NCBI GenBank assembly: GCA_041665025.1
Contig: JBAYJP010000002.1
Location: forward strand, 691-64,690
Length of the DNA: 64,000 nucleotides
Origin: Candidatus Magasanikiibacteriota bacterium
GTDB taxonomy: Bacteria; Patescibacteriota; Patescibacteriia; Magasanikbacterales; UBA922
Direction of reading: 5' to 3'
Position numbers and translations under genes: made by a program. Positions within the stretch are counted from its first letter, which is position 1. Every line of letters begins with the position of its first letter. Shown in pieces: positions 33,925 to 58,372 of the stretch. Below the pieces are notes generated by a model. It ran no database searches. It saw only the letters and a program-made list of their open reading frames with translations, and had not been told where the DNA came from.

Positions 33925-33931
33925 ATACTAT

Positions 33932-34592: not shown

Positions 34593-35044
34593 AGACTATG
34601 TCTTATAATCAAAACCTCACAGTAAGAATAAAGCGCCTTCGCCCAGACGCCAAACTCCCCACCTATGCTCACCCCGGTGATGTAGGCATGGATTTGTATT
34701 CTGTAGAGGATACGTGTGAATTAAAGCCCATGGAACGAAAAGTATTCAATGTAGGCTTTGCCCTTGAATTTGATACCGGTTATGGTGCTATAATAAAAGA
34801 TAAGGGCGGTCCTCCTTTTTACCATGGATTACACACTATGGGGGGTGTTTTTGACGCGGGTTATCGAGGGGAATACAATGTACTCCTCATAAACCTCGGA
34901 CAAGAGCCAACCACTATAGAAAAAGGGCAAAAAATTGCCCAGCTCATTATATACCCCGTGGTTATTGCTGAACTCGCAGAAACACAAGAACTATCAGACA
35001 GTTCGCGGGGAGCAGGAAGACTTGGCAGTACAGGTAAATTCTAA
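34583..35044 (+). CDS. dut: dUTP diphosphatase
   Basis: Motifs AHPGDVGMDLY and the C-terminal RGAGRLGSTG. Confidence 0.85.
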   Translation: MNLKTMSYNQNLTVRIKRLRPDAKLPTYAHPGDVGMDLYSVEDTCELKPMERKVFNVGFALEFDTGYGAIIKDKGGPPFYHGLHTMGGVFDAGYRGEYNVLLINLGQEPTTIEKGQKIAQLIIYPVVIAELAETQELSDSSRGAGRLGSTGKF

Positions 35045-35094
35045 ACTCATACAAAACAAATACAAACGTCTAAATCGACATAACTCCAACATAT

Positions 35095-35529
35095 ATGAAT
35101 AACTATCCTACACTATTTTTATTGACAAATACATCACACGCGCAATGGTATCGTGTCGTTGCAGAAAACAAGATAGAGCTCATAAAAGAATCAGAAGCTG
35201 AGGAATATGAATTATCCGATCACGAAGGTTCATTCCGTTCTCCAAACAAAACAGGAGCCCCTGATGTCATGAGCAAAGTAAAATTGGCTGAAGAAAAAAA
35301 ATTTTTGCAGCAAGTTGCAAATCACACCAAAGAAATTCTTCAGGGAGACACAGAAATGCACGAGATGACATACGCGGCTCCGGAACAACTCAAAAATGAA
35401 CTACATGATATATTGGAACGTGCATGTGGCCTGCGTACCTATCAATATATATCTGGAAATCACGTAGGCGCCTCGAAAGAAAAAATTATGAAGCTTATGA
35501 AACAAAATACCAAGACATCCGACAGATAA
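35095..35529 (+). CDS. Hypothetical protein within the dTMP cluster
   Basis: No recognisable motif. Confidence 0.4.
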   Translation: MNNYPTLFLLTNTSHAQWYRVVAENKIELIKESEAEEYELSDHEGSFRSPNKTGAPDVMSKVKLAEEKKFLQQVANHTKEILQGDTEMHEMTYAAPEQLKNELHDILERACGLRTYQYISGNHVGASKEKIMKLMKQNTKTSDR

Positions 35530-35530
35530 T

Positions 35531-36403
35531 ATGCAATCCTACCTCAACATTGTAAAAAAAATTCTTGAACACGGCACAAAAAAAGAAGACCGCACGGGCA
35601 CTGGCACCATTTCTGTTGCCGGTGTTTTGTTTGAACATGACATGAGTACGGGGTACCCCCTGCTTACCACCAAGAAAATGCCTTTCAAAGTTATGGCTAC
35701 TGAGCTTGAGTTTTTTATTAAGGGAATTACGGACAAACAGTGGCTTTTGGATAGAAACTGTCATATATGGGATGAGTGGGCAAATCCTATGAAAGCTCCG
35801 TATGGCCATGATGAAGAAAGCAAAAAGCGCATGGCAGAAGAACGAGATTTGGGACCAGTATATGGTTTTCAGTGGAGACATTTTAATGCACAATATCTCG
35901 GACTGGACGCAGACTATTCAGATCAAGGTGTGGATCAATTAAAATATGTAGTTGATACACTCAAAACCAATCCCAGCGACCGGCGGATGCTCATTGTCGC
36001 CTGGAATCCAACGATGAAAGACCAGATGGCACTTCCTCCATGCCATTACGCATTCCAAGTAACTGTTACGGGAAATAAATTGAATCTCATGTGGAACCAA
36101 CGATCAGTAGATGTTATGCTTGGACTGCCATTTAATATTTCAAGTTACGCATTGTTATTGCATTTACTGGCAAAAGAAGCAGGACTAGAAGAAGGCAGAC
36201 TCGTTGGTTTCCTTGGTGACACCCACATTTATCTGAATCATATTGAAGGTGCAAAAGAACAGTTATCACGAGATCCAGGCATACATCCATTGCCAAAAAT
36301 TGAAACTAACAATTTTACGAATATTTTTGATTGGCAATCCACAGATACCACTCTTATTGGATATGAAAGTTATCCGAGGATAAAATTTGATATAGCTGTT
36401 TAG
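35531..36403 (+). CDS. thyA: Thymidylate synthase (ThyA)
   Basis: Motifs DRTGTGT and PPCHYAFQ. Confidence 0.95.
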   Translation: MQSYLNIVKKILEHGTKKEDRTGTGTISVAGVLFEHDMSTGYPLLTTKKMPFKVMATELEFFIKGITDKQWLLDRNCHIWDEWANPMKAPYGHDEESKKRMAEERDLGPVYGFQWRHFNAQYLGLDADYSDQGVDQLKYVVDTLKTNPSDRRMLIVAWNPTMKDQMALPPCHYAFQVTVTGNKLNLMWNQRSVDVMLGLPFNISSYALLLHLLAKEAGLEEGRLVGFLGDTHIYLNHIEGAKEQLSRDPGIHPLPKIETNNFTNIFDWQSTDTTLIGYESYPRIKFDIAV

Positions 36404-36467
36404 ACAAGTTCAGAGTTCGGAGTTCACAGGAACTCTTCTCCGAACTACGAACTGTAAACTCCGAACT

Positions 36468-36941
36468 ATGTTTTCATTAATCGCCGCTATCTCCCAAAAC
36501 AATTGCATCGGCAAAGACAACAAAATTCCCTGGAACATCCCGGAAGATTTTCAGTATTTCAAAAAAATGACCTTAGGAAAAACCTGTCTTATGGGACAAA
36601 AAACGTTTGAATCAATTTTGGAATACTTAAAAAAACCATTACCAGAAAGAAAAAATGTGGTTATCACGAAAAATACTGAATACAAAGCACCAGAGGGAGT
36701 TGAAGTACTTCACTCCATCGATGACGCATTTGCCACATTAAAAGATGAAGATGTGTTTGTCTGTGGCGGTGCAAGTATTTATGCCCAAACAATTGATCGC
36801 GTGGATACGCTCTACATCACCCATGTTCATCAGGTTGTAGATGGAGATACTTTTTTCCCGGAGATTAAGAAAGATACGTGGGAGGAAACGTGGAGAGAAG
36901 ATCATGAAGGATTTTCATTTGTTAAGTACAAACGAATTTAA
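36468..36941 (+). CDS. folA: Dihydrofolate reductase
   Basis: IAAISQNNCIGKDNKIPW. Confidence 0.9.
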   Translation: MFSLIAAISQNNCIGKDNKIPWNIPEDFQYFKKMTLGKTCLMGQKTFESILEYLKKPLPERKNVVITKNTEYKAPEGVEVLHSIDDAFATLKDEDVFVCGGASIYAQTIDRVDTLYITHVHQVVDGDTFFPEIKKDTWEETWREDHEGFSFVKYKRI

Positions 36942-36966
36942 AATTTCGAATTTCGAAATTAAAACT

Positions 36967-37650
36967 ATGAATAAAGGTCTCTTTATCATGCTCGAGGGCA
37001 CCGACGGTTCTGGCAAAAGCACACAGACCAATCTTTTGGTTGAACGACTGAAACAAGAAAGACAGCAGGTTGAACAAATTAGTTTCCCCCAATACGGCAA
37101 ACCGAGTGCCGCGCTTGTTGAAGATTATCTAAATGGAAAATTTGGAAGCGCCGAGGAGGTAGGACCTTATCGTGCCTCTATCCTCTATGCAGTGGATCGC
37201 TTTGCCGCATCAGAGCAAATCAAAAAATGGCTGTCGGAAAACAAAATTGTCATCGCAAATAGATATGTAGCCTCAAACATGGGTCATCAGGGCGGAAAAA
37301 TAAAAAATCCTGCTGAACGCCAAAAATACTTTGATTGGAATTACGATTTGGAGTATACTATACTCGGTATTCCAAAACCTGAAGTCAACATCATTTTGCA
37401 TGTTACGCCCGATATATCTCAGCAACTAGTAGACAAGAAAGGCGACCGAGAATACTTAAAAGGCAAAAAACGCGATATTCATGAAGATGATCTACACCAT
37501 TTAGCTGATGCGGAGCAAGCGTATCTCGACATTGCAAAGCATTATCCTGAATTTACACTCATTGAATGCGTACAAAATAACAACATGCTTCCTCCAGATA
37601 TAATTCATAAAAAAATCTGGTCGGAAATAAAAAAGCATCTTAATTCATAA
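36967..37650 (+). CDS. tmk: Thymidylate kinase
   Basis: The start was trimmed to MNKGLFIMLEGTDGSGKST, which carries the P-loop. Confidence 0.9.
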   Translation: MNKGLFIMLEGTDGSGKSTQTNLLVERLKQERQQVEQISFPQYGKPSAALVEDYLNGKFGSAEEVGPYRASILYAVDRFAASEQIKKWLSENKIVIANRYVASNMGHQGGKIKNPAERQKYFDWNYDLEYTILGIPKPEVNIILHVTPDISQQLVDKKGDREYLKGKKRDIHEDDLHHLADAEQAYLDIAKHYPEFTLIECVQNNNMLPPDIIHKKIWSEIKKHLNS

Positions 37651-37662
37651 TGTACATAACCT

Positions 37663-38457
37663 ATGTTGCTATCTGCCGGTGATGTTATTTCACGAAGCGT
37701 GAAGCTTTGTCGAGACAACATGAACCTTTTCCTGAAATACTCAGGACTTATACTCGTGCCAACACTCCTCGTAACGCTTGCGGGGTATACGGTTGGAATT
37801 ACTATGGTTGCATCCCAAAGCTTTGCTATGGGACTTGGACTATATCTTATTCTCGTTATCGCCCTTGCGTTATTTGGTTTTATGGTAGGTATAGCGCTCA
37901 TGAAAGCAGTTGCTATGCGCTATGAGGGACAAACTGCAATGCCTTTGGGAGAAGCATTGAAAAACAGCATGAAATATATTCTCCCCGGAATTTTGGTGGC
38001 TATTTTGACGGGGCTTGCCACACTCGGTGGCTTCCTCCTTCTCATTATTCCTGGTATTATTTTTGGTATTTGGTTTGCATTTTCTTTTCAAGCTCTGGTA
38101 ATTGATGACAAACATGGCACAGACGCTCTCAAGACAAGCAAACATCTGGTACATGCAAGATGGTTTGGCGTATTTTGGAGACTATTTCTTCCTGCCCTTG
38201 TATTTGGACTGCTCTACATGGCACTCCAATGGATACTACAGCTCATCCTCGGCGTTCGAAGTGAAGCGGTAATAGACTCGACTGCTTCATTCACGGTGCG
38301 AATGGTTATGTATACTATTTTGACATCAATATTAAGCGCCTTACTTACACCATTCACCACAGCAGCGTCAACAATCCTCTATATTGAACTGAAAAAAAAT
38401 CCGGTTCAAATCGGCATGCCAACAGAGACAAAAGTGGAAGAACCACCAAAAGAATAA
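37663..38457 (+). CDS. Polytopic membrane protein, hypothetical
   Basis: About 6 TM helices. A terminator follows at 38471-38498. Confidence 0.45.
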   Translation: MLLSAGDVISRSVKLCRDNMNLFLKYSGLILVPTLLVTLAGYTVGITMVASQSFAMGLGLYLILVIALALFGFMVGIALMKAVAMRYEGQTAMPLGEALKNSMKYILPGILVAILTGLATLGGFLLLIIPGIIFGIWFAFSFQALVIDDKHGTDALKTSKHLVHARWFGVFWRLFLPALVFGLLYMALQWILQLILGVRSEAVIDSTASFTVRMVMYTILTSILSALLTPFTTAASTILYIELKKNPVQIGMPTETKVEEPPKE

Positions 38458-40249: not shown

Positions 40250-40870
40250 ATGGAAGAAAATGCAACTAAAGAAGTATTGGATTATTTTAGAACTAACATA
40301 TTTGAGGCTTTTTCCGCATACAACGCATGGAAAATAATCTTTCTTTCTAAATCTGAGACAGTAGTTCCGAAAGAAATGGCTGAAAAATATGTAGAGGTAC
40401 AAAACTATCACAAAGATTTCTTTATCACAACCGAAAGAGCATTACTAACAAACTTTGTACTATTATCTCTACATTCTTTTGACAAAAGAGATGATTCGTT
40501 TTCATTGTATAAGGTTGATGAGCCTGCAACAGAGAAATTTATTAGTGATAACAAAGAAACAATTGAACAACTCATAAAACTTCGTCATAAACTTTTTGCA
40601 CATAGAGATCATAAGTTAAAAATTACTGAATTTCAGATACCCTCTGTTGAGAAACTTGATACCTATTTCAAAAATTTAATCGACTTTTATAATAAAAAAA
40701 CTCAATCACTCCTTTCTTCTACAACACTATTTACCAACGCAGTGGAGATAAAAAGAGATGTTGAATCACTATTACAAAATTTGTATAGAGGTGAAAAAAT
40801 TAGAAAATTAGCAATAAGTATTGAGTGGGAATGGGAGAAAAACCTAAAAAAGGCCTGCGACGTGATTTAA
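40250..40870 (+). CDS. Hypothetical protein with a possible HEPN-like Rx5H motif, in an AT-rich segment
   Basis: The motif LRHKLFAHRD reads as R-x5-H. This is my own reading, not a database result. Confidence 0.35.
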   Translation: MEENATKEVLDYFRTNIFEAFSAYNAWKIIFLSKSETVVPKEMAEKYVEVQNYHKDFFITTERALLTNFVLLSLHSFDKRDDSFSLYKVDEPATEKFISDNKETIEQLIKLRHKLFAHRDHKLKITEFQIPSVEKLDTYFKNLIDFYNKKTQSLLSSTTLFTNAVEIKRDVESLLQNLYRGEKIRKLAISIEWEWEKNLKKACDVI

Positions 40871-43100: not shown

Positions 43101-43158
43101 CTTGAGTCTTAAATCTTACGTACTAAAAAAGACTAACATTTCAAACTACTTACGCTCT

Positions 43159-44592
43159 ATGTCCCTCATCCCCCTCGCCCTCACCTACGACGACGTCCTC
43201 ATCGTCCCCCGCCGATCTACATTTGAATCGCGCAGTGAAGCACACACGCGTACCAGACTTACCAAAAAACTTAGCCTCAATATTCCTGTTGTCTCTGCAA
43301 ACATGGACACAGTCACGGGAGCTGAAATGGCAATTGCCTTGGCACGCCTTGGCGGTATTGGTATTTTGCATCGCTTCATGTCTATAGAAGACAATGCTGA
43401 GGAAGTAAAAAAAGTGAAACGTGCACAAAACCTCATTGTCCAAGATCCCTATACTATTGATCCTGAAAAAACGGTAGAAGAAGCAAAAGGATACGCAAAT
43501 TCAGTTGGCGTTACTGGATTACTCGTGGCGAATGGGGACAGAAAATTGCAGGGTATCTTATCTCGCAGAGATTTTTTATTTGCCAATGGTGATGACAAAA
43601 AAGTGAGAGACATCATGACTCCGCGCGAAAAATTGATAGTGGGTAATGCATACACAACATTTGAACAAGCAAAAAAAATATTTTCAGAATATAAAGTGGA
43701 AAAATTACCGCTTGTAGACGAAGAAAATCACGTGATTGGACTTATTACGAGTGATGATATAAAAGCAATTATTGAATACCCTCTTGCAAATCGTGACGTG
43801 GAAGGACAGCTTATAGTCGGCGCGGCAGTTGGTGTTCATGGGGACTTCGTGGAACGCGCGCAAGAAATGGTTAGTGCTGGTACTGATGTATTAGTTATTG
43901 ATATCGCGCACGGACACTCAGACAATATGTTTAAAGCCATTGAGAAATTACGCGACGCAGTTGGAGACATTCAAATTATTGCAGGAAATATTGCGACCGC
44001 CCAAGCAGCAAAAGAATTGTGCGAGGCTGGCGTGGACGCAGTAAAAGTTGGCGTAGGCCCAGGCTCAATTTGCATTACTCGTCTTGTCACTGGCTGCGGT
44101 ATGCCTCAGCTTACTGCGGTAATGGAGGTAGTAAAAATTGCACGACAATATGGCGTGCCTGTAATTGCAGATGGCGGTATTTCAAAATCAGGTGACATAG
44201 TAAAAGCCATTGGTGCAGGCGCAGACAGCGTGATGATGGGCAGTATGTTTGCAGGAACTGACGAAAGCCCAGGAGTCGTTATGACCAAAGGAGACAAAAA
44301 ATTCAAAGTATGCCGTGGCAGCGCAAGTTTCACTCAATCACATACACGTAAGAGAGTTGGACTAGAAAGCAAAAATCTAAAAGAAGTTGTGCCTGAAGGC
44401 GTTGAATCATTGGTTCCTTACAAAGGACCTGTTGCAGATATTGTCGGTCAGCTCGTTGGTGGTTTAAAATCAGGTATGAGTTATACCAATTCACACACCA
44501 TTCCTGAATTACAACATAATTGCGATTTTGTACGCATTTCAAATGCGGGATTGAGAGAGAGTGGTGCGCATGATGTACAAGCTCTTACATAG
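43159..44592 (+). CDS. guaB: IMP dehydrogenase
   Basis: The start was trimmed to [16 protein letters not shown]. Contains a CBS pair and [11 protein letters not shown]. Confidence 0.9.
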
Positions 44593-44714
44593 GATAGTGG
44601 GCAAGGAAACCAGAAACCAGATTATTATTTTAAAAATTTGGTATCCAAATCTATTGTCCAATATATTCCGGTTTCCTGACCCAACGCCCAAAACCCACAA
44701 CAAAAAACACATAA

Positions 44715-47380
<2,666 letters not shown>

Positions 47381-47459: not shown

Positions 47460-47548
47460 ATGACAAAAGAAAATTTCTGCTCACATCGTGAGCTATACGT
47501 TACTATTTCATTATTTCATGACCGTTACCAATCGTAACGGTCTTTTTT
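47460..47548 (+). promoter_or_regulatory. Candidate pyrBI attenuator: a 25-codon leader ORF ending inside a rho-independent terminator 10 nt upstream of pyrB
   Basis: ATG at 47460, peptide MTKENFCSHRELYVTISLFHDRYQS, stop TAA at 47535-37. The stop lies in the 3' arm of the hairpin gaccgttac-caatc-gtaacggtc (47520-47542), which is followed by TTTTTT. Confidence 0.45.
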
Positions 47549-47558: not shown

Positions 47559-48479
47559 ATGGACTCATTTGCCGGAAAAGATATCATTTCCATAAACCAG
47601 CTCACCAAAGATGGCATCATGCATATTTTGAAGCATGCTCGTCTGCTCAAACAGACTCCAAACAAAGAACTTTTGAAAGGTCATGTCATGGCAAGCTGTT
47701 TTTTTGAACCTTCCACTCGAACAAGACTTTCGTTTGAAACTGCCATGGAAAGACTGGGCGGCCAAGTCATGGGATTTGCAGATGCCGGGGTCACTTCTGC
47801 AAAGAAAAAAGAAAGTTTGTATGATTCTATGAAAATTATAGGACAATATGCAGACGTCATCGCTATGAGGCATCCTTTGGAAGGTGCAGCACGAAGAGCG
47901 TCAGAGGCAACGGACAAACCCATCCTCAATGGCGGAGACGGTGCAAATCAGCACCCAACACAAACACTTCTCGATCTATTTTCCATACTTGAAACTCAGG
48001 GTACCCTTGAAAATCTCCATATTGCCATGGTCGGAGATCTAAAATATGGTCGTACCGTCCATTCACTCGCGCAAGCCTTAAAACACTTTGGCGCACGCCT
48101 CTACTTCGTGGCTCCAGAATCACTCAAAATGCCCAGTTACATTGCGAGAGAGCTTGAGACAAGCGGGATTGTGGTTACTGAACATGAGCGCATTGAGGAA
48201 ATAATCAATGCCGTAGATATACTGTACATGACACGCATCCAGGCAGAGCGGTTTGCAGACCAAATGGAATATGAAAAGATAAAAAATGTATATGTACTCA
48301 CTGCAGATATGCTGGAAAATGCAAAATCAAATCTCCGTGTCATGCATCCCCTGCCTCGTGTAAATGAAATCCATGTGAATGTAGACGAAACACCTCATGC
48401 ATATTATTTTGAACAAGCAGAAAATGGTCTATATGTACGGCAAGCATTGCTTGGGCTTGTGTTAGGTAAACTCACTTAG
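47559..48479 (+). CDS. pyrB: Aspartate carbamoyltransferase catalytic subunit
   Basis: Motifs STRTR, HPTQ and HPLP. Confidence 0.95.
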
Positions 48480-48647: not shown

Positions 48648-49124
48648 ATGGACCGACAAAAAGACATCCGCGCTTTCAAAGTATTTACTATTGAAAATGG
48701 AACAGTTATTGATCATATTGATGCAGGCCAAGCCATTCGTATTATTCAAGTTTTAAATCTCCCTGCGGGACAAAAGATTGTGACTGCCGGGCTCAACTTT
48801 CCCAGCAGCAAAATGGGGTTCAAAGATATTATCAAAGTAGAACACAGAGAACTAACTCAGGAAGAAGCAAACAAAGTTGCTATTTTTGCCCCTCATGCAA
48901 CAATAAATATTATTCAGAATTTTGAAATAACCAAAAAATTTAAAATTACCATCCCCCCGGTCATTCAATCTCTCGTCGTCTGCCCTAATCCCAAATGCAT
49001 TACCAATAATGAACCAATGGAAAGTATATTTTATGTGAAAGAAAATGATACGGGTTTAGAATTCCATTGTAAATATTGTGAAAAAGTGTTCGGAAGAGAT
49101 GATGTACGGGAATATAAACAATAG
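48648..49124 (+). CDS. pyrI: Aspartate carbamoyltransferase regulatory subunit
   Basis: Four-Cys zinc domain (CPNPKC...CKYC). Confidence 0.9.
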   Translation: MDRQKDIRAFKVFTIENGTVIDHIDAGQAIRIIQVLNLPAGQKIVTAGLNFPSSKMGFKDIIKVEHRELTQEEANKVAIFAPHATINIIQNFEITKKFKITIPPVIQSLVVCPNPKCITNNEPMESIFYVKENDTGLEFHCKYCEKVFGRDDVREYKQ

Positions 49125-49209: not shown

Positions 49210-50400
49210 ATGTTAATCAAGACCTATAATAACCAAAATATTAAACTAAACCTCGATTACACCAGAGGTAATTTATTTGCACTCCCGGCTCTCATTGACC
49301 CTCATGTTCATTTTAGAACTCCGGGTGCTGAGCATAAAGAAAATTGGATTACCGGAGCACAGGCTGCGCTGGCTGGCGGGGTGACAACGGTGTTTGATAT
49401 GCCGAACAACACACCGAGCACAATAAGTACTTCAGCACTTCAGCACAAAATAAACTTGATTGACTACCAACTAAAAGAAGCTGGCATTCTGTTACGGTAT
49501 AAACTATGGTTTGGAGCAACGCCGAATAACCTTGGCGAGATTGAAAAACTTCAGGAATATAAAGATCAGATCTGTGGTATAAAAATATTTATGGGATCAA
49601 GTACAGGAAATCTGCTCGTGAATAAAAAAGAAGATCAAGCAAAAATTTTTGAACAGGCTGCACGTCTTGATCTGGTGGTAGCGGTACATGCGGAGAGTGA
49701 GTCTAAAATCCAAGACTCAAGATCGAAGATTAGTAATCCAAAGATTCAAGACCATTCTATAGTTCGTTCTCGTGAAGCAGCTGCTGAGGCCACAAACCAA
49801 GCGATTGAACTAGCCAAACAATTTGGAACCAAGTTATACATACTACATGTAAGTACAAAAGAAGAAATTGAAATTATAAGCCAAGCAAAACGGCAAGGTA
49901 TACAGATGTATGCAGAAGTCACGCCACATCATTTATTTTTAGACGAATCCGCGTATGATAAACTGGGAACCAAAGCACAGATGAATCCTCCGCTCCGGAC
50001 TACAGAGGATCGTAAGGCTTTATGGCAAGCTATTGATGATGGAACAATTGATACTATAGGGACTGACCACGCTCCACATACGCTTGAGGAAAAAGCTTTA
50101 ACGTATCCAAACTCGCCCTCTGGCGTACCAGGAATTGAAACTTCGCTTCCCCTGTTGCTTGATGCCCACAATAAAGGTAAAATAAGCTTAGAAAAAATAG
50201 TTCAACTAACCAGAAAAAATATTGAAAAAATATTTAAACTTGAACCAAATAACGACTGGGTCATCGTCGACTTGAATATGGAAAAAGAGGTGCGAGATGA
50301 AGATCTAAAAACAAAATGTGGGTGGAGCCCGTTTGAAGGGTGGGAGTTGAAAGGATGGCCGGTCGCGGTTATTTTACAAGGAAAGCTATTTCACATATAA
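49210..50400 (+). CDS. pyrC: Dihydroorotase, carrying an in-frame KIQDSR repeat insertion
   Basis: DPHVHFR...GGVTTVFDMPN. Confidence 0.9.
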   Translation: MLIKTYNNQNIKLNLDYTRGNLFALPALIDPHVHFRTPGAEHKENWITGAQAALAGGVTTVFDMPNNTPSTISTSALQHKINLIDYQLKEAGILLRYKLWFGATPNNLGEIEKLQEYKDQICGIKIFMGSSTGNLLVNKKEDQAKIFEQAARLDLVVAVHAESESKIQDSRSKISNPKIQDHSIVRSREAAAEATNQAIELAKQFGTKLYILHVSTKEEIEIISQAKRQGIQMYAEVTPHHLFLDESAYDKLGTKAQMNPPLRTTEDRKALWQAIDDGTIDTIGTDHAPHTLEEKALTYPNSPSGVPGIETSLPLLLDAHNKGKISLEKIVQLTRKNIEKIFKLEPNNDWVIVDLNMEKEVRDEDLKTKCGWSPFEGWELKGWPVAVILQGKLFHI

Positions 50401-50428
50401 TAAAGGCGCTATCCTAATCCATACAGAT

Positions 50429-50782
50429 ATGTTTACCAAACGGTATCACTATATATTTGACATAGACCATTGCCATGAAAAAAATATTAGAAATAGAAAA
50501 CTGATTCCTAAATTTTTACGTGAAACAGTGACTACCATAGGCATGAAAATACTTATGGGGCCATATATTAGGCAAGGCGTCCCTGAAAATCCGGGAATAA
50601 CCGGCATCGCAGTATTGGATTTTTCTCATATGTCGGTGCATACATTTACCAAAACAAACGAAGTTCTCATAGACGTATTCTCGTGCAAACCATATGAAAA
50701 AAAGATGGTACGAGATATTTGTATAAAATATTTCGGCACTCCAAAATCAAAGGTTCGCGAGAAAAAAGTGTGGTGGGGCTAA
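50429..50782 (+). CDS. Pyruvoyl-dependent decarboxylase of the SpeH/AdoMetDC class 1b family
   Basis: GITGIAVLDFSHMSVHTF aligns with the SpeH self-cleavage region (ESHxxxHTWPE). Confidence 0.6.
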   Translation: MFTKRYHYIFDIDHCHEKNIRNRKLIPKFLRETVTTIGMKILMGPYIRQGVPENPGITGIAVLDFSHMSVHTFTKTNEVLIDVFSCKPYEKKMVRDICIKYFGTPKSKVREKKVWWG

Positions 50783-50812
50783 CACCTCATTTTTTTATTT
50801 TTTAAAAATTAT

Positions 50813-51742
50813 ATGAAAGCAAAAAACATTGTAGAGGTCACTGATTTTACGCAAAACGAATGGAAAAAATTGATTGACGAAGCTATAAAATTCAAAGAAA
50901 ATAAGTTACGAAAACCACGCGCGCTTGATAAAAAAAGAGTTGGTCTTTTATTTGACAGTAATTCTCTGCGTACTCGAATATCGTTTGAAACTGCGGTTTA
51001 TCTGCTTGGTGGAGACAGCTACTTCATTAATATTCACAATCTAACGCATGAACAAGACGGCACCAGACGGGAATCATTTGAAGATATCATTGATACTGCA
51101 GATCGGATGCTTGATGCCTATGTACTCCGCGACTATTCGCAAAAAATGCTAGAGGTGTTCAAACGAAAAAATAATCCCCCGTTTATCAATGGTTTTTGCC
51201 AAATCGGCCACCCGAGCCAAGCTCTCGCTGACATGAGCGCTATCAAATGGCATAAAAAAAATCTACAAGGACTCAACTACGTAGGAGTCGTTCCAAGCCA
51301 GGGCAGCGGAGTCATGGAATCTTTTGTATACGCCGTATTACTTTTAGGAGAACATATCACGCTTATTACAGAGACAGGAAAATTCAAAGGAAAAAATCAG
51401 GATTTTCATGAACAAGTAAAAAAACTGACAAATAAGTTCAAGGGATCCTTAACTATAACAAAAAATATTGAACATACTATACAAAATGCTGATGTACTCT
51501 ATGCAGATGAATGGTGGAAGAATACAAAAAACTATCTAAAACGAAATATAGGAAAATATAGGGTTGATGATGCATTTTTGAAAGGTAGCAAGAAAGACTT
51601 ATCCATATTGCATTGTCTGCCAGCGCATCCTGGACGTGAAATCACCGAAGAAGTCATGGACAGCCCTCAATCCATTATTTTTGATGAAGCCGAATTTAGA
51701 GTATATTCTGCCATGGCGTTGCTATCATATTTGGCTGAATAA
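50813..51742 (+). CDS. Ornithine-carbamoyltransferase-family protein, paralog 1
   Basis: SLRTR, HPSQALAD and HCLP motifs. Confidence 0.75.
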   Translation: MKAKNIVEVTDFTQNEWKKLIDEAIKFKENKLRKPRALDKKRVGLLFDSNSLRTRISFETAVYLLGGDSYFINIHNLTHEQDGTRRESFEDIIDTADRMLDAYVLRDYSQKMLEVFKRKNNPPFINGFCQIGHPSQALADMSAIKWHKKNLQGLNYVGVVPSQGSGVMESFVYAVLLLGEHITLITETGKFKGKNQDFHEQVKKLTNKFKGSLTITKNIEHTIQNADVLYADEWWKNTKNYLKRNIGKYRVDDAFLKGSKKDLSILHCLPAHPGREITEEVMDSPQSIIFDEAEFRVYSAMALLSYLAE

Positions 51743-51790
51743 ACCTACACAAAAATTACTAATCTTTAATCTTCAATCTTGAATCTATGC
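51743..51790. repeat. AATCTT-family repeat; its reverse complement is agattcaagattgaagattaaagattag
   Basis: Its reverse complement equals the in-frame element found in prmC. Confidence 0.6.
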
Positions 51791-52740
51791 GCCACCTCAT
51801 CTCTCTCAAAGAACAATCCCGCGAAGATTTGTTAACTATTTTAAATCTCGCACAAAAACTGAAAGCAAAACGAAGCGCAGGTGAAATTACCAATTACCTT
51901 CTGAACAAAACACTCATCATGTTATTCCAAAAATCTTCAACCCGCACTCGGTTGTCATTTGAGGCTGGGATGACAGAGCTTGGCGGCCATGGTATTTTTC
52001 TTGATTCACGTACATCCCAATTTTCTCTCACCGATTATACAGATGAGATAAAAGCTGTCATGCGGTATGGTTCTGTCCTTATGTTTCGTGCCATGAAAGT
52101 ACAGGATGTAATAACCGCAGCGTCACTCAATAAAATTCCAGTCATTGACGCATGTAGTGAAAAATATCATCCATGTCAGGCACTCGGGGATATCTTGACG
52201 ATGATCGAACACTCAAATGGTCTTGAAAATATCAAAAAAATAACCTGGCTTGGAATTGAAAATAACGTTTCAAATACACTTAAATTGGCTTGTGCCAAAT
52301 TGGGTATTGCCGTTGCGATTGCCGCACCAGAAGCAAATCCTCCTAGTATTGACGAGGAATTGAACACAATGGCTGACGCAACTGGGCTCGTAAAAAAGAC
52401 GTTGGATCTGTCAGAGGCTATGCAAGGAACAAACTATGTACATACCGACACCTGGATTGATATGGAATTTTTCAAAGACGGCAAAGTGCTCCCTGAATTC
52501 CAGGCAGAATATGATCGCCGCGTACAGACATTCAAACCATACCAACTTAACGCGAACCTGGTAAATACCTACGCGCCAAAAGCTGGCATTATGCACTGTA
52601 TGCCGTGCCATATTGGCTATGAAATCACCCGCGACGCCGTAGATCATCCAAATTCAATAATCTTTGACCAAGCGGAAAATAGAATGCACATACAGAAGGC
52701 GATAATACTCTGGTTGTTGGAAATGGAAAATAAATTATAA
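51787..52740 (+). CDS. Ornithine-carbamoyltransferase-family protein, paralog 2
   Basis: STRTR, HPCQALGD and HCMP motifs. Confidence 0.75.
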   Translation: MRHLISLKEQSREDLLTILNLAQKLKAKRSAGEITNYLLNKTLIMLFQKSSTRTRLSFEAGMTELGGHGIFLDSRTSQFSLTDYTDEIKAVMRYGSVLMFRAMKVQDVITAASLNKIPVIDACSEKYHPCQALGDILTMIEHSNGLENIKKITWLGIENNVSNTLKLACAKLGIAVAIAAPEANPPSIDEELNTMADATGLVKKTLDLSEAMQGTNYVHTDTWIDMEFFKDGKVLPEFQAEYDRRVQTFKPYQLNANLVNTYAPKAGIMHCMPCHIGYEITRDAVDHPNSIIFDQAENRMHIQKAIILWLLEMENKL

Positions 52741-52852
52741 GAAACAAGAAACAAATAAAATTCCAAACTCCAAAACATAAATTGATTATTATAATTTGGA
52801 TCTTTATTTGGAAATTGTATCTTGTGTCTTAATTCTGTGTTGATTAAATACT

Positions 52853-54172
52853 ATGCCTCTCTACGGACCAGAAACACAAAAAGCTATAACAAACTTTCCT
52901 ATTACCGGAATTACTTTTTCACGCGATATAGCTCACGATATTGCGCTTATAAAAAAATGTTGTGCAAGAGCCCACAAAAAACTCGGCACTCTCGAAGCAA
53001 ATATCGCCGATGCAATTATACAGGCATCACAAGAATTAATTGACGGGACGTATGACGACCAAATCATGGTAGACCAAATTCAGGGTGGTGCAGGCACCTC
53101 CATGAACATGAACGTAAATGAGATTATTGCGACGCGTGCTTCGGCTTTGTGTGGAGTACCAGTGCATTCGCTCGACCATGTAAATAAATCCCAATCAACT
53201 AACGACGTTGTCCCCACTGCATTCAAAATTACGCTTCTCAAACAACTAGACAAGCTTACTACGGTGTACCAACATTATTATGAAAAGGCAAAACACAAAA
53301 GCAAAGAATTTGAACATATTCTCAAAGTCGGACGAACACATCTGCAAGACGCAGTGCCCATAACTTTGGGCCAAGAATTTGGCGCACATGCTATAGCTAT
53401 TGCCCATGATATCGGACGGCTTAAGCATACACAACATGCACTGTATGAAATCAATGTCGGCGGCACGGCTATCGGCACAGGATTAAATGCTTCGAGACGA
53501 TTCACTGATTGTGTTGTCGATTTTCTACAAAAGGAAACTGACTATCCACTCACCTTGTCACCTGACCTTATATACAACACTCAATATTGGGATAGTATTA
53601 TGGAAGTAAGTGCGACGCTAACCGTACTTGCGACAAACATCATTAAATTCATGAACGACCTAAGATTGCTTGCCTCAGGACCACATGCGGGCATCGCAGA
53701 AATTTCATTTGCCGAAGCACAAAAAGGCTCATCCATCATGCCCGGTAAAGTAAACCCAGTCATGGCAGAAATGATGACACAGATTGCATTCCAAGTTCTA
53801 GGCAATCACGAGACAGTTCGCATGGCTGTACAAGCAGGACAATTGGAACTCAATGTGATGGGACCAATTATTATAAAAAATTTACTTGAGTCATTACATA
53901 TTATCACCACCGGCACGGTACAATTCACCACACAGGGCCTTTCACTCATTACAGCAAATGAAAGACGATGTGCTGAACTTCTTGAACATAGTTTTGCGCT
54001 TGCAACAGTGCTCTGTCCTATTATTGGATATGATAAAACAACTGAACTGGTAAATGAAGCTCAAAGACAACATAAAACTCTCAAACAAATAGCGCAAGAA
54101 AAAGGAATTATAAATGATGAAGAATATAATAATTTGCTTAATGATCCAAACTTAACCCAGATCAGACCTTAG
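52853..54172 (+). CDS. Class II fumarase / aspartate ammonia-lyase family enzyme
   Basis: The GSSIMPGKVNPV signature. Confidence 0.8.
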   Translation: MPLYGPETQKAITNFPITGITFSRDIAHDIALIKKCCARAHKKLGTLEANIADAIIQASQELIDGTYDDQIMVDQIQGGAGTSMNMNVNEIIATRASALCGVPVHSLDHVNKSQSTNDVVPTAFKITLLKQLDKLTTVYQHYYEKAKHKSKEFEHILKVGRTHLQDAVPITLGQEFGAHAIAIAHDIGRLKHTQHALYEINVGGTAIGTGLNASRRFTDCVVDFLQKETDYPLTLSPDLIYNTQYWDSIMEVSATLTVLATNIIKFMNDLRLLASGPHAGIAEISFAEAQKGSSIMPGKVNPVMAEMMTQIAFQVLGNHETVRMAVQAGQLELNVMGPIIIKNLLESLHIITTGTVQFTTQGLSLITANERRCAELLEHSFALATVLCPIIGYDKTTELVNEAQRQHKTLKQIAQEKGIINDEEYNNLLNDPNLTQIRP

Positions 54173-54174: not shown

Positions 54175-55083
54175 ATGTTGAAAACAAATTTCCTTAATAC
54201 AGTATTTGATAATCCCCTTGTCCTCGCCTCGGGTATTCGTGGCGTCACAGCCGCGAGCATGGCGCGCATGGTAAAAGAAAATGGCGCGGGTGGAGTGACG
54301 GTAAAATCTATTTCACTTGAGCCAAGAACTGGACACCCAAACCCAACCATGGCTCCATTTAAACATTATTTTATCAATGCAGTAGGGTTATCCAATCCAG
54401 GTATTGCGGAAGGTTTGAAAGAATTAAAAAAGTTTAAAGAATTATGTGATGCCCCACTCATTGGTAGTATTTTTGCAGGCACGCCCGATGAATTTGCACA
54501 GGTTGCCGAAAAAATAAGCGAAGCGCCAATAGATTTTCTTGAGATAGACATCTCATGCCCCAATGTAAGTAAAGAATTTGGTGACCCATTTGCCTATTCT
54601 ATTCCGGCCGTTGAACTCATCACCAAAAAAGTAAAAGAAAAGACGAAAGTTCCTATTTCAATCAAACTATCACCTAATGCATGGAATATTGACACAATAG
54701 CAAAAGCAGCAGAAAACGCTGGGGCCGATGCAATTACAGCCGTAAACACCGTAAGTGGCATGGCAATAGATGTACACGCAAAACGGCCCATACTTCATAA
54801 CAAGCAGGGTGGGGTTTCCGGCCCAGCACTCTTTCCTATTGCACTCAAATGCGTGTATGACATTTACAAAGCAGTAAAAATCCCGATTATTGGTACAGGC
54901 GGTGTGACAACAGGTGAAGATGCACTCGCGATGATTATGGCAGGTGCGACTTTGGTAGGTGTTGGGTCAGCAGTATATTTTAGAGGCGAAGATTGTTTTA
55001 AAAAGATTACCAGTGAGATGGAAGAGATAATGCGAGAAGAAAACATAAATTCTTTAGAGGAAATTAGAGGATGTGTACATTAG
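54175..55083 (+). CDS. pyrD: Dihydroorotate dehydrogenase (class 1B) catalytic subunit
   Basis: Typical PyrD 1B sequence. Confidence 0.9.
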   Translation: MLKTNFLNTVFDNPLVLASGIRGVTAASMARMVKENGAGGVTVKSISLEPRTGHPNPTMAPFKHYFINAVGLSNPGIAEGLKELKKFKELCDAPLIGSIFAGTPDEFAQVAEKISEAPIDFLEIDISCPNVSKEFGDPFAYSIPAVELITKKVKEKTKVPISIKLSPNAWNIDTIAKAAENAGADAITAVNTVSGMAIDVHAKRPILHNKQGGVSGPALFPIALKCVYDIYKAVKIPIIGTGGVTTGEDALAMIMAGATLVGVGSAVYFRGEDCFKKITSEMEEIMREENINSLEEIRGCVH

Positions 55084-55173: not shown

Positions 55174-55980
55174 ATGGACAAATCACAATACATTCAAATT
55201 ACAAAAATAGTAAATGAAAATCCCCAAGTAAAGACATTTTACTTTAATTTTAAATTGCAAAGCAAACCCGGCCAATTTGTCATGCTCTGGATTCCGGGCA
55301 TTGACCAAAAACCATTCTCAATTGCATATGACGATGGCGCACAATTTGGCCTCACTATTTTCAACCGCGGACCATTGACACAAAAACTATTTGAAATGAA
55401 TGTCGGAGATAGAGTAGGTATTGTGGGTCCTTATGGCACTTCATTTTCTCAAAAACCAAACATTCACTACATTATGGTTGCCGGTGGATATGGTGCTGCG
55501 CCGTTAGGATTTCTAGCGGAACAGTTACAACAATACGATAATATAACAGTTGATTTCCTCATTGGTGCGCGTACTAAAGATTTACTTTTATTTGAAGGAC
55601 GAATATTAAAAATTCCAAATACAAAATTACACATTGCAACTGACGATGGCAGTATAGGACACCACGGTTATATTACGGACTTACTCAAAAATATTATCTG
55701 TGAAATCAGTGACAAAAAATCTGCGGCAGTTGTCACCTGCGGCCCTGAACTCATGGAAAAGAAAGTCCTCGACATTTGCAATGAGTTTGATGTACCATGC
55801 GAGGTGAGCATTGAGCGATATATGAAGTGCGGTTATGGTGTCTGTGGCCAATGTGTCGTAGATGACTTGGGAATTTGCATGTGTACACATGGACCAGTGG
55901 TAAATAGTGAACTAGCAAACAAACTAATTGAATTTGGGAAATATCATCGGGAGAAGAGTGGTATTGCCACGAATTTTTAA
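55174..55980 (+). CDS. pyrK: Dihydroorotate dehydrogenase electron-transfer subunit
   Basis: The C-terminal 2Fe-2S motif CGYGVCGQC...CMC. Confidence 0.85.
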   Translation: MDKSQYIQITKIVNENPQVKTFYFNFKLQSKPGQFVMLWIPGIDQKPFSIAYDDGAQFGLTIFNRGPLTQKLFEMNVGDRVGIVGPYGTSFSQKPNIHYIMVAGGYGAAPLGFLAEQLQQYDNITVDFLIGARTKDLLLFEGRILKIPNTKLHIATDDGSIGHHGYITDLLKNIICEISDKKSAAVVTCGPELMEKKVLDICNEFDVPCEVSIERYMKCGYGVCGQCVVDDLGICMCTHGPVVNSELANKLIEFGKYHREKSGIATNF

Positions 55981-56025: not shown

Positions 56026-56922
56026 ATGAGAAGAATGATTGAGCTTAATAGGGAGGGAATTGCGACACGCAACGGGGGCGCAGAATCATTTCAACATACT
56101 GAAATAGACCCTAAAACAGGAAAAAGATTTTTAATTAAAAATCTTTGCGTAGATGAGCATGGTTTTGCAAACCAACGCGAAGAAAACGCCGACACAAGAC
56201 TCCTAACTTCTACAGAAGGCTTCAATTATGGAATAAAAGAAGAATTGGAACGCCATTATACTAAATTGGTCGCCTGTTATGGAGAGTATATTGTTAAACA
56301 AAGGATAAAGAGAAAAATCAGCCGCAAAGATAGATTTGAAATTGAGCAAGAATTTTTAAAACTTGCCAAACCAGCTGATATTTTTGAATATGATACCGGC
56401 ATGTTAAGTGAGAAGACACTTGGACAGTTGGAAGATTTACTAAAAAAATTAAAGGGAGTGTATGCCTATTTTCAGGGCTTGATGACAAGTTTTCAAGTAC
56501 CCATAATGGACCCTAAAATAAATGGATATAGCAGGTCTATGCTAGTCCCTTTAGATTTACGAGGTAGCGGAAATTTGTGTGTAACGAAAAATGGAGATAT
56601 ACGATACATAGACACCGGTCTCAAAATTTCTTCTTTTGATGAGCCTTTTTTCAAATATAACCAACATGAGTTTTTCCGTCAGGTAGCCGCACGTATAGCA
56701 GCCCTTGAGTGTGTCCTTGGTCGAAAACCGCCTGAATTTTTAGATGAACCTGTCTACAGAAAGCTAGCAACGTATTGCAGAGAAGATGGTATCAGTGAAC
56801 TTTGGACAAAATTGCAAACACAGTCGTCTGAGGAGTGCAAAAGATTACTTATGGATTTGGAAAAACATACCAAAAAAAAGGAAACATCCTTTAAACACTT
56901 TGAAGAGATGTGGCTTAATTAA
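56026..56922 (+). CDS. Hypothetical 298-aa protein inserted between pyrK and pyrE
   Basis: No confident domain. LDLRGSGNLCVTKNGDIRYIDTG is weakly reminiscent of an atypical-kinase catalytic loop. Confidence 0.45.
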   Translation: MRRMIELNREGIATRNGGAESFQHTEIDPKTGKRFLIKNLCVDEHGFANQREENADTRLLTSTEGFNYGIKEELERHYTKLVACYGEYIVKQRIKRKISRKDRFEIEQEFLKLAKPADIFEYDTGMLSEKTLGQLEDLLKKLKGVYAYFQGLMTSFQVPIMDPKINGYSRSMLVPLDLRGSGNLCVTKNGDIRYIDTGLKISSFDEPFFKYNQHEFFRQVAARIAALECVLGRKPPEFLDEPVYRKLATYCREDGISELWTKLQTQSSEECKRLLMDLEKHTKKKETSFKHFEEMWLN

Positions 56923-56953: not shown

Positions 56954-57559
56954 ATGAGCCACACAACCCTCATCTCAAAACTTTTCGAAATAAACGCTAT
57001 CAAATTTGGCGAATTTAAACTCAAAACTGGTTCTCTATCCCCCATTTACATTGATCTCCGTGTTACTATTTCATATCCAGACGTCCTCAAAATGGTGGCT
57101 GAAGCTATGTGGGATAAAGTAAAAAACCTAGAGTTTGATATAATTTGTGGAGTACCTTATACTGCCTTGCCTATTGCTACAGCCATATCGCTAGAACACA
57201 ATAAACCCATGATCATGCGCAGAAAAGAAGTAAAAGACTATGGCACGCGTAAAGCGATAGAAGGTGCATTTCAGCCCGGGCAACACGTGCTCGTGGTAGA
57301 AGACTTAGTTACCAGCGGGTCAAGTGTATTTGAAACAATTGAACCATTAGAATTAGAACAATTAAAAGTTAAGGACATTGTAGTTCTTTTAGATCGTGAA
57401 CAGGGTGGAAAAGAAAATATTAATTCACGCGGTTGCAATCTACATTCAGTTCTAACCATGTCTGTTTTACTTGATACCTTACGAAACGAAAAGAAGATTG
57501 ATCAAGCTATGTTTGATAAGGTGCAAGAATATATAAAAAGTACACAAGTTAAAAAATAA
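56954..57559 (+). CDS. pyrE: Orotate phosphoribosyltransferase
   Basis: PRPP-binding motif VLVVEDLVTSGSS. Confidence 0.9.
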   Translation: MSHTTLISKLFEINAIKFGEFKLKTGSLSPIYIDLRVTISYPDVLKMVAEAMWDKVKNLEFDIICGVPYTALPIATAISLEHNKPMIMRRKEVKDYGTRKAIEGAFQPGQHVLVVEDLVTSGSSVFETIEPLELEQLKVKDIVVLLDREQGGKENINSRGCNLHSVLTMSVLLDTLRNEKKIDQAMFDKVQEYIKSTQVKK

Positions 57560-57604: not shown

Positions 57605-58372
57605 ATGTCATCCTATTCAGAACGTGCCAAACAATGTTCAAATCCTACAGCTATTCGTCTGTTAAATCTCATGGACTCAAAACAATCTAACCTCGCCATT
57701 GCCACTGATGTTATTACCAAAGCAGAACTTTTAAAAATAGCAGATGAACTCGGTCCAGAAATTTGCATTTTGAAGACTCACATAGATATTGTAGAAGATT
57801 TTGATGATAATTTGATTATTCAATTGCAACGACTTTCAGAACAGCACAACTTTTTATTGTTTGAAGATAGAAAATTTGCAGACATTGGCAACACGGTCAT
57901 GCACCAATATCAAGATGGCATATACCATATCGCTGACTGGGCGCACATAACCAATGCCCATACTGTCCCAGGTCCAGGCATTATTGACGGCCTTAAAGAA
58001 GTAGGTCTCCGAAAAGGACGGGGGCTTTTACTTCTGGCTGAAATGAGTTCAAAAGGAACTCTCGCACAAGGTGAATATACACAAAAAACACTGGAAATGG
58101 CACAGGCAAACAAAGACTTTGTAATCGGCTTTATCACGATGAAAAAATTACTCGATGACCCATGTTTTATCAATATGACGCCAGGAGTTAAACTAGCGAC
58201 AGGCAGTGATTCACTTGGGCAACAATACAATACCCCTGAAAAAGTTATTGGAGAAAATGGAAGTGATATTATCATTGTCGGACGGGGCATTTACGAAGCA
58301 TCTGACCCTGTTGCAGAAGCACGAAAATATAGAGAGGCAGGGTGGAAGGCGTATGAATCACGTAACACGTAA
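57605..58372 (+). CDS. pyrF: Orotidine 5'-phosphate decarboxylase
   Basis: The motif [11 protein letters not shown]. Confidence 0.9.

Follow-up and report, generated by a model that had tools for sequence, protein, structure and literature searches.

Four extra genes in the pyrimidine operon of a Magasanikbacteria genome and their possible role in supplying carbamoyl phosphate and aspartate

The ultra-small bacteria of the candidate phyla radiation (CPR) and the DPANN archaea are believed to obtain most of their building blocks from hosts, and a minority of them keep de novo pyrimidine synthesis. The substrates of aspartate transcarbamylase (ATCase) are carbamoyl phosphate and aspartate. We analyzed a 64,000-nucleotide stretch of a Candidatus Magasanikiibacteriota genome (contig JBAYJP010000002.1, positions 691 to 64,690; hereafter the window). 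Its pyr operon holds four additional genes between pyrC and pyrD, and no carbamoyl-phosphate synthetase gene (carAB) is seen in the roughly 74 kb read. Where, then, would its ATCase obtain its substrates? We give about an even chance to the reading that the four genes form a substrate-supply module, predicted from sequence, which would give PyrBI both carbamoyl phosphate and aspartate.

The four open reading frames (ORFs) are all on the + strand, and their coordinates agreed exactly with those in an earlier note made from the sequence of this DNA alone. They encode a SpeH-like putative pyruvoyl decarboxylase with the class 1b S-adenosylmethionine decarboxylase (AdoMetDC) fold (50429..50782, 117 aa), a divergent transcarbamylase, OTC1 (50813..51742, 309 aa), a putative ornithine/citrulline transcarbamylase, OTC2 (51787..52740, 317 aa), and an aspartase-like class II lyase (52853..54172, 439 aa). 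The genes pyrB, pyrI and pyrC lie upstream, and pyrD, pyrK, a 298-aa ORF, pyrE and pyrF lie downstream, on the same strand throughout. The intergenic gaps between the four ORFs and their neighbors are 2–112 bp.

The region read comprised the window and the next 10 kb of the contig, about 74 kb of 440 kb. Pfam scans and tblastn with CPR CarA, CarB, carbamate kinase, ArgG, ArgH, dimethylarginine dimethylaminohydrolase/arginine deiminase (DDAH/ADI)-like and ArcE-like queries gave no match in the window, in which no ORF is longer than 751 aa. The next 10 kb contained none of carAB, carbamate kinase, argGH, DDAH/ADI-like and ArcE-like genes. These searches confirmed the earlier note's statement that no carbamoyl-phosphate synthetase is visible in the window.

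Both transcarbamylases contain the Pfam OTCace_N and OTCace domains. The best PDB matches of OTC2 were ornithine transcarbamylases (OTCs). Shi et al. (PMC4581275) defined FxKxSTRTR, HPxQ, Asn-Asn (with Asn167), D231, a distal Arg and DxxxSMG as OTC determinants. OTC2 carries FQKSSTRTR, HPCQ, Asn-Asn and HCMP (in place of HCLP), with equivalents of K53, D231 and R319. Among 120 family members, the Lys was conserved in 98%, Asn-Asn in 100/100% and the Asp (D231) in 100%. OTC2 thus resembles ArgF/ArcB in its FxKxSTRTR, HPxQ and HxLP-type motifs, Asn-Asn and D231, in clustering with canonical OTCs and apart from OTC1 in a neighbor-joining tree, and in having carbamate kinase, ArgG/ArgH and ornithine decarboxylase as neighbors in related loci. 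It differs from them in that DxxxSMG is replaced by DTW(I/M)(D/N)M (DTWIDM in the window), in an insertion of about nine residues, and in scoring just under the NCBIfam cut-offs.

OTC2 has a very large family with unusually strong conservation: more than 120 homologs with at least 72% identity were found, and OTC2 is carried by 190 GTDB species from many CPR phyla and DPANN archaea. OTC2 proteins labeled as Woesearchaeota or Nanoarchaeota were 67–74% identical to bacterial CPR ones, which suggests cross-domain transfer or mis-binning. Many OTC2 loci labeled 'uncultured Gammaproteobacteria' hold CPR-type gene content.

Is OTC2 a regular member of pyr operons? We mapped the window proteins and recurrent neighbors onto 80 species-level OTC2 loci. 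At least two pyr genes adjoined OTC2 in 36 of them, usually in the order pyrB-pyrI-pyrC-OTC2-pyrD-pyrK-pyrE-pyrF. An independent contig, L119, showed the order pyrB-pyrI-pyrC-OTC1-OTC2-pyrE-pyrF, with no decarboxylase and a gap of 2 bp between OTC1 and OTC2 that points to coupled expression. Because OTC2 adjoins pyr genes in 36/80 loci and the OTC1-OTC2 tandem recurs in L119, the arrangement of the insert is not due to chance.

Carbamate kinase (TIGR00746, 409 bits; cut-off 358) was present in 17/80 loci, mostly directly upstream of OTC2. Five loci (L039, L049, L062, L064 and L068), always with carbamate kinase, also contained a 440-aa P-loop protein, whose sole PDB relative was cyclic-2,3-diphosphoglycerate synthetase with weak similarity (9sxb, E = 1e-7). 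The arginine synthetase ArcE has been described with a relation to that enzyme (PMC11032458). The P-loop, the weak similarity and the carbamate kinase and OTC2 neighbors are consistent with the protein being a candidate ArcE; if so, the arginine synthetase pathway would extend to CPR bacteria. In the closest relatives, from Magasanikbacteria (L012 and L014, 2/80; OTC2 81–83% identical), a gene of the DDAH/arginine deiminase superfamily lies before pyrB and carbamate kinase lies between pyrI and pyrC, inside the pyr operon. In effect, the pyrimidine genes are interspersed with those of an arginine-deiminase-type pathway. The order carbamate kinase, OTC2, pyridoxal-phosphate (PLP)-dependent ornithine decarboxylase was found in 2/80 loci (L016 and L022), and downstream of one of these lies a SpeD-SpeE fusion. 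A bona fide knotted transcarbamylase of the YgeW type (NF005538, 599 bits, above the cut-off of 453) was directly upstream of carbamate kinase-OTC2 in two loci (L026, 1021-2247, and L046), labeled Bathyarchaeia and 'Gammaproteobacteria', and the order carbamate kinase, OTC2, aspartase-like gene was found in one (L028). As judged from sequence, OTC2 is a probable ornithine/citrulline enzyme central to CPR carbamoyl-phosphate metabolism and a regular member of the pyr operon.

We propose that OTC2 would phosphorolyze citrulline (citrulline + Pi -> ornithine + carbamoyl phosphate) and that the carbamoyl phosphate would be passed to PyrBI. This direction is likely because no carAB, carbamate kinase or argGH lies nearby. 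That catabolic carbamoyl phosphate feeds pyrimidine synthesis is already a known concept. In Thermococcus kodakarensis, which has no carbamoyl-phosphate synthetase, deletion of arcE or arcB (OTC) resulted in pyrimidine auxotrophy, and deletion of arcC did not (PMC13260591). Because of these deletion genetics, reported in 2026, such feeding is no longer hypothetical. The locus studied here resembles the T. kodakarensis ArcE/ArcA-ArcB-ArcC pathway (PMC13260591, PMC11032458) in that genes of de novo pyrimidine synthesis are linked with an OTC-family enzyme while carbamoyl-phosphate synthetase is not in view, and in that related CPR loci carry ArcE-like or DDAH/ADI-like genes, OTC2 and carbamate kinase. 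A difference is that the OTC is located inside the pyr operon here, with no arginine-to-citrulline enzyme or carbamate kinase within about 74 kb. The locus also has a second transcarbamylase, a putative pyruvoyl decarboxylase and an aspartase-like lyase, and its supply function is predicted from the genes. The general idea of the earlier note, that a catabolic transcarbamylase provides carbamoyl phosphate for PyrB, was strengthened by L012/L014, by the ArcE-like-carbamate kinase-OTC2 and carbamate kinase-OTC2-ornithine decarboxylase loci, and by T. kodakarensis; the agmatine route that it had named was not.

What does OTC1 do beside OTC2? The two had been described as tandem paralogs of the OTCase family, both with STRTR and HCxP motifs. 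The family and the tandem order held. OTC1 and OTC2 are 22–24% identical (24% by BLASTP) and fall into separate clades, so they are neither close nor recent paralogs. In the neighbor-joining tree OTC2 grouped with canonical OTCs and OTC1 was separate. OTC2 has STRTR and HCMP, and OTC1 has HCLP but S-L-R-T-R in place of STRTR. SLRTR was not an informative mark, for it also occurs in one or more of the canonical OTCs compared. The OTC1 clade contains about 67 proteins with 54–100% identity, from Magasanikbacteria, Kerfeldbacteria, Woesearchaeota and Nanoarchaeota. Outside the clade, identity falls sharply, to 35% with ordinary OTCs.

The transcarbamylase superfamily motifs are Fx(E/K/N/D/A/Q)xSxRT, HPxQ and HxLP (PMC4581275). 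OTC1 has them as FDSNSLRT, HPSQ and HCLP; its third position in the first motif is Ser (Ser or Ala in the family), and Ser is not in the published list. The carbamoyl-phosphate site (S-L-R-T-R/K, R106, HPSQ, HCLP and R296) is intact and invariant in 45 family members, and a non-catalytic paralog is unlikely with all these residues invariant. The ornithine site is lost. Lys53, Asn167 and the SMG loop are the ornithine-binding determinants (PMC4581275, PMC3282769). In OTC1, Ser/Ala replaces Lys53, Ser-Gly within an inserted GSG loop replaces Asn167/168, and DxxxSMG has become, family-wide, the shorter D-E-W-W-(K/E)-N, which lacks the M and the G. OTC1 scored 208 bits against the OTC model TIGR00658 (cut-off 280.85). 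With all three determinants missing across the family, OTC1 was rejected as an OTC and differs from ArgF/ArcB in exactly these features. Because the ornithine-carboxylate determinants are lost while the carbamoyl-phosphate site is kept, we propose an amine preference: OTC1 is a predicted transcarbamylase whose second substrate is plausibly an amine without an alpha-carboxylate.

Such an enzyme is known. In putrescine transcarbamylase (PTC; E. faecalis AgcB/PtcA, PDB 4a8h and 4a8p), the preference for carboxylate-free putrescine is explained by the loss of the same Lys and SMG loop (PMC3282769). Like PTC, OTC1 lacks both and has an aromatic residue after D-x-W, and its predicted fold matches PTC as well as OTC: with the AlphaFold 2 model (pLDDT 91.9) as the Foldseek query, PTC and OTC structures ranked equally (TM 0.85), giving no discrimination. 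Unlike PTC, OTC1 has Ser instead of Gln in FxQxSTRT, and its W-(K/E)-N-T matches the PTC loop signature (Y/W)(G/W)(V/L/I)x (DVWYGLY) at the first aromatic position only, so YGLY is absent. It ends at residue 309 without an extension and has no C-terminal helix 13, scored 173 bits against the PTC model TIGR04384 (cut-off 500), and forms its own clade. OTC1 was rejected as a known PTC.

These features bear on the route suggested in the earlier note. In that route the SpeH-like protein would decarboxylate arginine, agmatine would undergo deimination to N-carbamoylputrescine, and OTC1, acting as a PTC, would release carbamoyl phosphate. AdoMetDC-fold arginine decarboxylases do exist in CPR and DPANN (PMC10407285), one SpeH-like homolog lies 4 bp after an arginyl-tRNA synthetase gene (L095), and OTC1, as PTC, lacks the carboxylate-binding residues. 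OTC1 nevertheless fails every PTC signature, and the agmatine deiminase partner of PTC was seen neither in the window or the OTC1 gene neighborhoods nor among the annotated or recurrent neighbors of the roughly 120 loci examined. We consider the agmatine/carbamoylputrescine route very unlikely, and the place assigned to OTC1 in it was not supported.

The SpeH-like protein matched AdoMet_dc (PF02675, 69.6 bits), which bears out its assignment as a class 1b AdoMetDC/SpeH homolog. It scored 49.9 bits against the AdoMetDC equivalog TIGR03330, under the cut-off of 75.65, and aligned weakly with Thermotoga maritima SpeH (1tlu, E = 1.7e-4, 24.7 bits). A PDB sequence search returned only the T. maritima and A. 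aeolicus AdoMetDC with weak scores and gave no substrate clue. Ser66, His71 and Cys86 aligned at the same spacing with T. maritima S63, H68 and C83, which are processing and catalytic residues (PMC10407285), and were invariant in 11 homologs. Self-cleavage is predicted at Phe65-Ser66; the earlier note had proposed checking for a Glu-Ser or Phe-Ser site, and at the sequence level Phe-Ser is the one present. Word searches gathered 12 homologs. The motifs GVPENPG, D(F/Y)SH, HTFT and IDVFSCK are common to the clade.

Which substrate would it use? The Pro of the HTWPE motif marks true AdoMetDC (PMC10407285). The SpeH-like protein has HTFTK there, so the Pro is absent, and no gene for the spermidine synthase partner, speE, was found in the window. 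With the score below TIGR03330 as well, it was rejected as a bona fide AdoMetDC. For the known pyruvoyl ornithine decarboxylases (SpeDC), the positions of four diagnostic residues were inferred from the supplementary alignment Fig. S5 of PMC10407285 (Q-L-I-E-T-S...G-H-F...Y-I-D-I-F-S-C): a Gln, the Thr that precedes the pyruvoyl Ser, the Phe that follows His, and the Tyr in front of IDxFSC. In the SpeH-like clade the corresponding residues are Ala, Phe/Tyr, Thr and Leu/Met, which gives 0/4 SpeDC residues, and SpeDC was also rejected. The pyruvoyl arginine decarboxylases (SpeDA) are polyphyletic, have no sharp sequence signature and have lost the Pro (PMC10407285). The Pro is missing from the SpeH-like protein, yet in other respects its family is remote from AdoMetDC (1tlu, 24.7 bits). 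It fits neither AdoMetDC nor the characterized pyruvoyl ornithine decarboxylase clade, and placing it among arginine decarboxylases, as had been considered, was not supported. It resembles the neofunctionalized SpeD homologs SpeDC and SpeDA (PMC10407285) in being small, in its class 1b fold and Ser/His/Cys triad, in the missing HTWPE Pro, and in occurring in CPR without a spermidine synthase partner. It differs from them in the 0/4 SpeDC residues, in its own invariant GVPENPG motif, in having Phe/Tyr and not Glu or Thr before the pyruvoyl Ser, and in having a transcarbamylase as partner, not speE, speY, hss or casdh. The protein is predicted to be a self-processing pyruvoyl amino-acid decarboxylase, and belongs to a new small clade within the neofunctionalized SpeD group, to which sequence assigns no substrate.

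Independently in four places, namely the window, L097, L112 and L114, OTC1 or OTC1-like genes adjoined AdoMetDC-fold decarboxylase genes. In L097, a second Magasanikbacteria genome, the SpeH-like gene (48% identity) is 13 bp upstream of OTC1 (72% identity); the pair is outside any pyr operon, with pyrG and an aspartase-like gene within 7 kb. L112 and L114 represent a distant OTC1 branch (41–44% identity). There, an OTC1-like gene, a RaSEA-like radical S-adenosylmethionine (radical-SAM) protein gene and an AdoMetDC-fold decarboxylase gene follow one another in that order (L112, 7995-11184; L114, 145-2685). The RaSEA-like protein scored 54–80 bits against TIGR01210, below the cut-off, and is fused to a HemK-like methyltransferase in L112. 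The decarboxylases of both loci carry a SpeDC-type QxIETS...H(F/A)...IDIFSC pattern; the L112 partner has 3/4 and the L114 partner 2/4 SpeDC residues, with Phe instead of Tyr. A P-loop AAA_33 kinase gene lies upstream of the three-gene cluster in L112, and the contigs with this cluster are uncultured and CPR-like. The recurring linkages in L097, L112/L114 and L119 thus connect OTC1 with pyruvoyl decarboxylases as well as with the pyr/OTC2 setting.

We suggest that the SpeH-like protein and OTC1, as a conserved pair, are most likely concerned with an ornithine/citrulline-type amine that has been decarboxylated, putrescine or N-carbamoylputrescine. One option is that ornithine would be removed as putrescine, which would pull an OTC2 equilibrium that strongly favors citrulline. 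By analogy, the carbamate kinase-OTC2-ornithine decarboxylase clusters of L016 and L022 may be a PLP-dependent version of this option. The other is that the pair would be a second phosphorolytic source of carbamoyl phosphate, from a decarboxylated ureido compound; both options may combine. In a specific form, the pair would be an undescribed two-enzyme route of CPR and DPANN, in which a citrulline/ornithine decarboxylase is followed by a new amine transcarbamylase that phosphorolyzes a decarboxylated ureido compound, either N-carbamoylputrescine or one akin to it. We regard this form as unlikely. If true, it would deliver carbamoyl phosphate irreversibly to pyrimidines or to ATP formation without carbamoyl-phosphate synthetase, arginine deiminase or agmatine deiminase. 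The literature searched held no description of the OTC1 clade, of the decarboxylase clade of the window, or of an OTC-like/AdoMetDC-like gene pair, and mentioned 'citrulline decarboxylase' in plant polyamine reviews only.

The second substrate of ATCase may be supplied by the fourth gene. The lyase contains the Pfam Lyase_1 and FumaraseC_C domains. It scored 514.6 bits against the aspartate ammonia-lyase model NF008909 (cut-off 510) and 401.3 bits against fumC (TIGR00979). Against the aspartase equivalog TIGR00839 it reached 455 bits, below the cut-off of 681. The best PDB match was the Bacillus YM55-1 aspartase AspB (1j3u, 380.6 bits), and fumarases scored at most 320. The motifs GSSIMPGKVNPV, GRTHLQDAVP and QSTND are present, and the SS-loop GSSIMPGKVNP fits the GSSxMPxKxN pattern. 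Aspartases typically have STND where fumarases have SSND. The lyase is thus like AspA/AspB in its SS-loop, GRTHLQDAVP and QSTND, in its best match and in passing NF008909; it differs in lacking about 20 N-terminal residues relative to AspB, in scoring under the TIGR00839 cut-off, and in being located inside a pyr operon. The assignment of the fourth gene to the class II aspartase/fumarase family was correct, and can be narrowed: with the higher aspartase model and PDB scores, a fumarase is less likely. Lyase homologs adjoin the carbamate kinase-OTC2 genes in L028 and lie near pyrG and the SpeH-like/OTC1 pair in L097. The lyase would aminate fumarate (+ NH4+) to aspartate for PyrB and PurA. PurA consumes aspartate, and PurB releases fumarate. 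This aspartate supply is proposed because purB is nearby.

Several observations weigh against the reading that the insert supplies PyrBI with both substrates. OTC2 narrowly missed two OTC cut-offs, with 275.5 bits where TIGR00658 requires 280.85 and 286.2 bits where NF001986 requires 306, and it deviates from strict OTCs in its loop insertion and in S235, which is Asp in 93% of its members. Within about 74 kb we saw no source of citrulline: neither arginine deiminase nor ArcE nor a citrulline transporter. In 6/80 loci, carAB lies directly upstream of pyrB in a pyr-OTC2 operon; because of these six relatives, the presence of OTC2 does not imply the absence of carAB. argG is beside OTC2 or its operon in 3/80 loci, and argH in 3/80. 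OTC2 may thus sit in a pyr operon as a consumer of carbamoyl phosphate and be anabolic in some genomes. For the window, the corresponding explanation is that genes elsewhere, carAB or that of an anabolic carbamate kinase, provide the carbamoyl phosphate, and that OTC2 is ArgF, converting salvaged ornithine to citrulline and arginine. OTC2 would be co-transcribed as a shared consumer, the decarboxylase would make polyamines, and the aspartase would make aspartate. Besides the carAB, argG and argH neighbors, the clustering of OTC2 with canonical, largely anabolic OTCs agrees with it. However, no carAB, carbamate kinase, argG or argH was found within about 74 kb here; carbamate kinase, ArcE-like, DDAH/ADI-like and ornithine decarboxylase neighbors are commoner than argG or carAB (17 carbamate kinase vs. 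6 carAB loci); and OTC1 is left unexplained. We consider the anabolic explanation unlikely.

The SpeH-like protein and OTC1 provide further points on that side. Beyond the missing SpeDC residues, most SpeH-like homologs do not adjoin a transcarbamylase; their neighbors differ, with a response regulator gene in one case and the arginyl-tRNA synthetase gene of L095 in another. Most OTC1 genes are singletons with unrelated neighbors, and some follow the aspartyl-tRNA synthetase gene in DPANN genomes. That the pair brackets a radical-SAM gene in L112 and L114 hints that it may serve biosynthesis instead. The pair could then be a self-contained module for a carbamoylated or otherwise modified amine, brought into the pyr operon by rearrangement and unrelated to pyrimidines; such a module might yield a derivative of a polyamine, or a precursor used in modifying a macromolecule. 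The pair outside any pyr operon in L097, the distant versions flanking the RaSEA-like protein with or without the HemK-like methyltransferase, and the OTC1 singletons in neighborhoods without pyr genes all fit this explanation. It does not fit L119, in which OTC1 without a decarboxylase is tightly joined to OTC2 in a pyr operon, or the nearness of the L097 pair to pyrG and an aspartase-like gene, or the tight spacing and common direction of all four inserted genes with the pyr genes. We judge it quite unlikely.

The pyr genes around the insert were assigned with scores above the model cut-offs. Upstream are pyrB, ATCase catalytic chain (47559..48479, +; TIGR00670, 385.8 bits, cut-off 236.95), pyrI, ATCase regulatory chain (48648..49124, +; TIGR00240, 177.2 bits, cut-off 148.55), and pyrC, dihydroorotase (49210..50400, +; TIGR00857, 331.2 bits, cut-off 279.05). 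Downstream are pyrD, the catalytic subunit of type 1B dihydroorotate dehydrogenase (54175..55083, +; NF005574, 339.6 bits, cut-off 269), pyrK, its electron-transfer subunit (55174..55980, +; NF000796, 273.4 bits, cut-off 224), pyrE, orotate phosphoribosyltransferase (56954..57559, +; NF010382, 227.6 bits, cut-off 208), and pyrF, orotidine monophosphate decarboxylase (57605..58372, +; TIGR01740, 201.8 bits, cut-off 92.3). The genes guaB, purA and purB (43102..47380, +) are immediately upstream of the pyr genes. They belong to a + strand nucleotide-metabolism island that extends from 33 kb on and contains a deoxynucleotide block, gatB, pdxST, guaB-purA-purB and the pyr genes. This island is unusually complete for a CPR genome. 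The deoxynucleotide block (33400-38457, +) encodes dCMP deaminase, a P-loop kinase, dUTPase, thyA, folA and tmk.

A terminator-like hairpin with a 9-bp GC-rich stem and a T-run (47520..47542, +; consensus match only) lies 17 nt 5' of the pyrB start. It may terminate the guaB-purA-purB unit, or it may be an attenuator in the pyr leader that responds to pyrimidines. In a promoter and terminator scan of the window, the total number of sites was not above the shuffled expectation, and this hairpin alone was notable. An Rfam scan of the window found only a 23S rRNA gene, bacterial, within which the window begins, and one tRNA; no known pyr leader or riboswitch was found. A sigma-70-like near-consensus promoter, TTTACA-17-TATAAT (50373-50401, +), is present at the end of pyrC before the SpeH-like gene, and a weak terminator-like hairpin (50772-50791, +) overlaps the stop codon of the SpeH-like gene; both are consensus matches only.

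The 298-aa orphan ORF between pyrK and pyrE (56026..56922, +) had 26 homologs among 1.84 billion representative proteins and no Pfam or NCBIfam match. G18, K38, D177, N183 and D196 are invariant among the homologs. Its AlphaFold 2 model (pLDDT 82) gave weak Foldseek matches to PknB and other kinases (TM 0.3–0.4), which suggests that it may be an atypical protein with a protein-kinase-like fold. It was not present in the other pyr operons examined.

Some other genes of the contig are recorded here. Two tandem proteins of about 490 aa (4175-5629 and 5635-7122, -) carry a PEP-utilizers mobile domain at the C terminus as their sole domain, apart from an N-terminal helix-turn-helix in one of them. 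Paralog pairs like them occur in DPANN loci (L003, L009 and L011), separated from OTC1 by a few kb. A 206-aa ORF between gatB and pdxS (40250-40870, +) gave a sub-threshold HEPN AbiU2 match (25.9 bits vs. 26.8) and could be a defense or toxin gene. Past the window end, the contig (L122, 11247-16129) carries six tandem ABC2_membrane_6 paralogs of about 263 aa each, followed by one ABC ATPase.

In the literature searched, no description was found of an OTC embedded in CPR pyr operons. The hard-wiring of an OTC in the pyr operon of dozens of CPR species might even mean that host-derived citrulline or arginine is the normal carbamoyl donor of CPR pyrimidine synthesis, a reading that we also regard as unlikely. 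The pyr-embedded OTC, with its carbamate kinase, ArcE-like and ADI-like neighbors elsewhere, offers a testable answer to the question asked above: carbamoyl phosphate may come from scavenged citrulline or arginine. The locus also singles out two uncharacterized clades, a transcarbamylase without the ornithine-carboxylate site and a putative pyruvoyl decarboxylase outside the AdoMet, ornithine and arginine groups. The list of known transcarbamylase specificities is short, and these clades, if confirmed, would extend it by one member.

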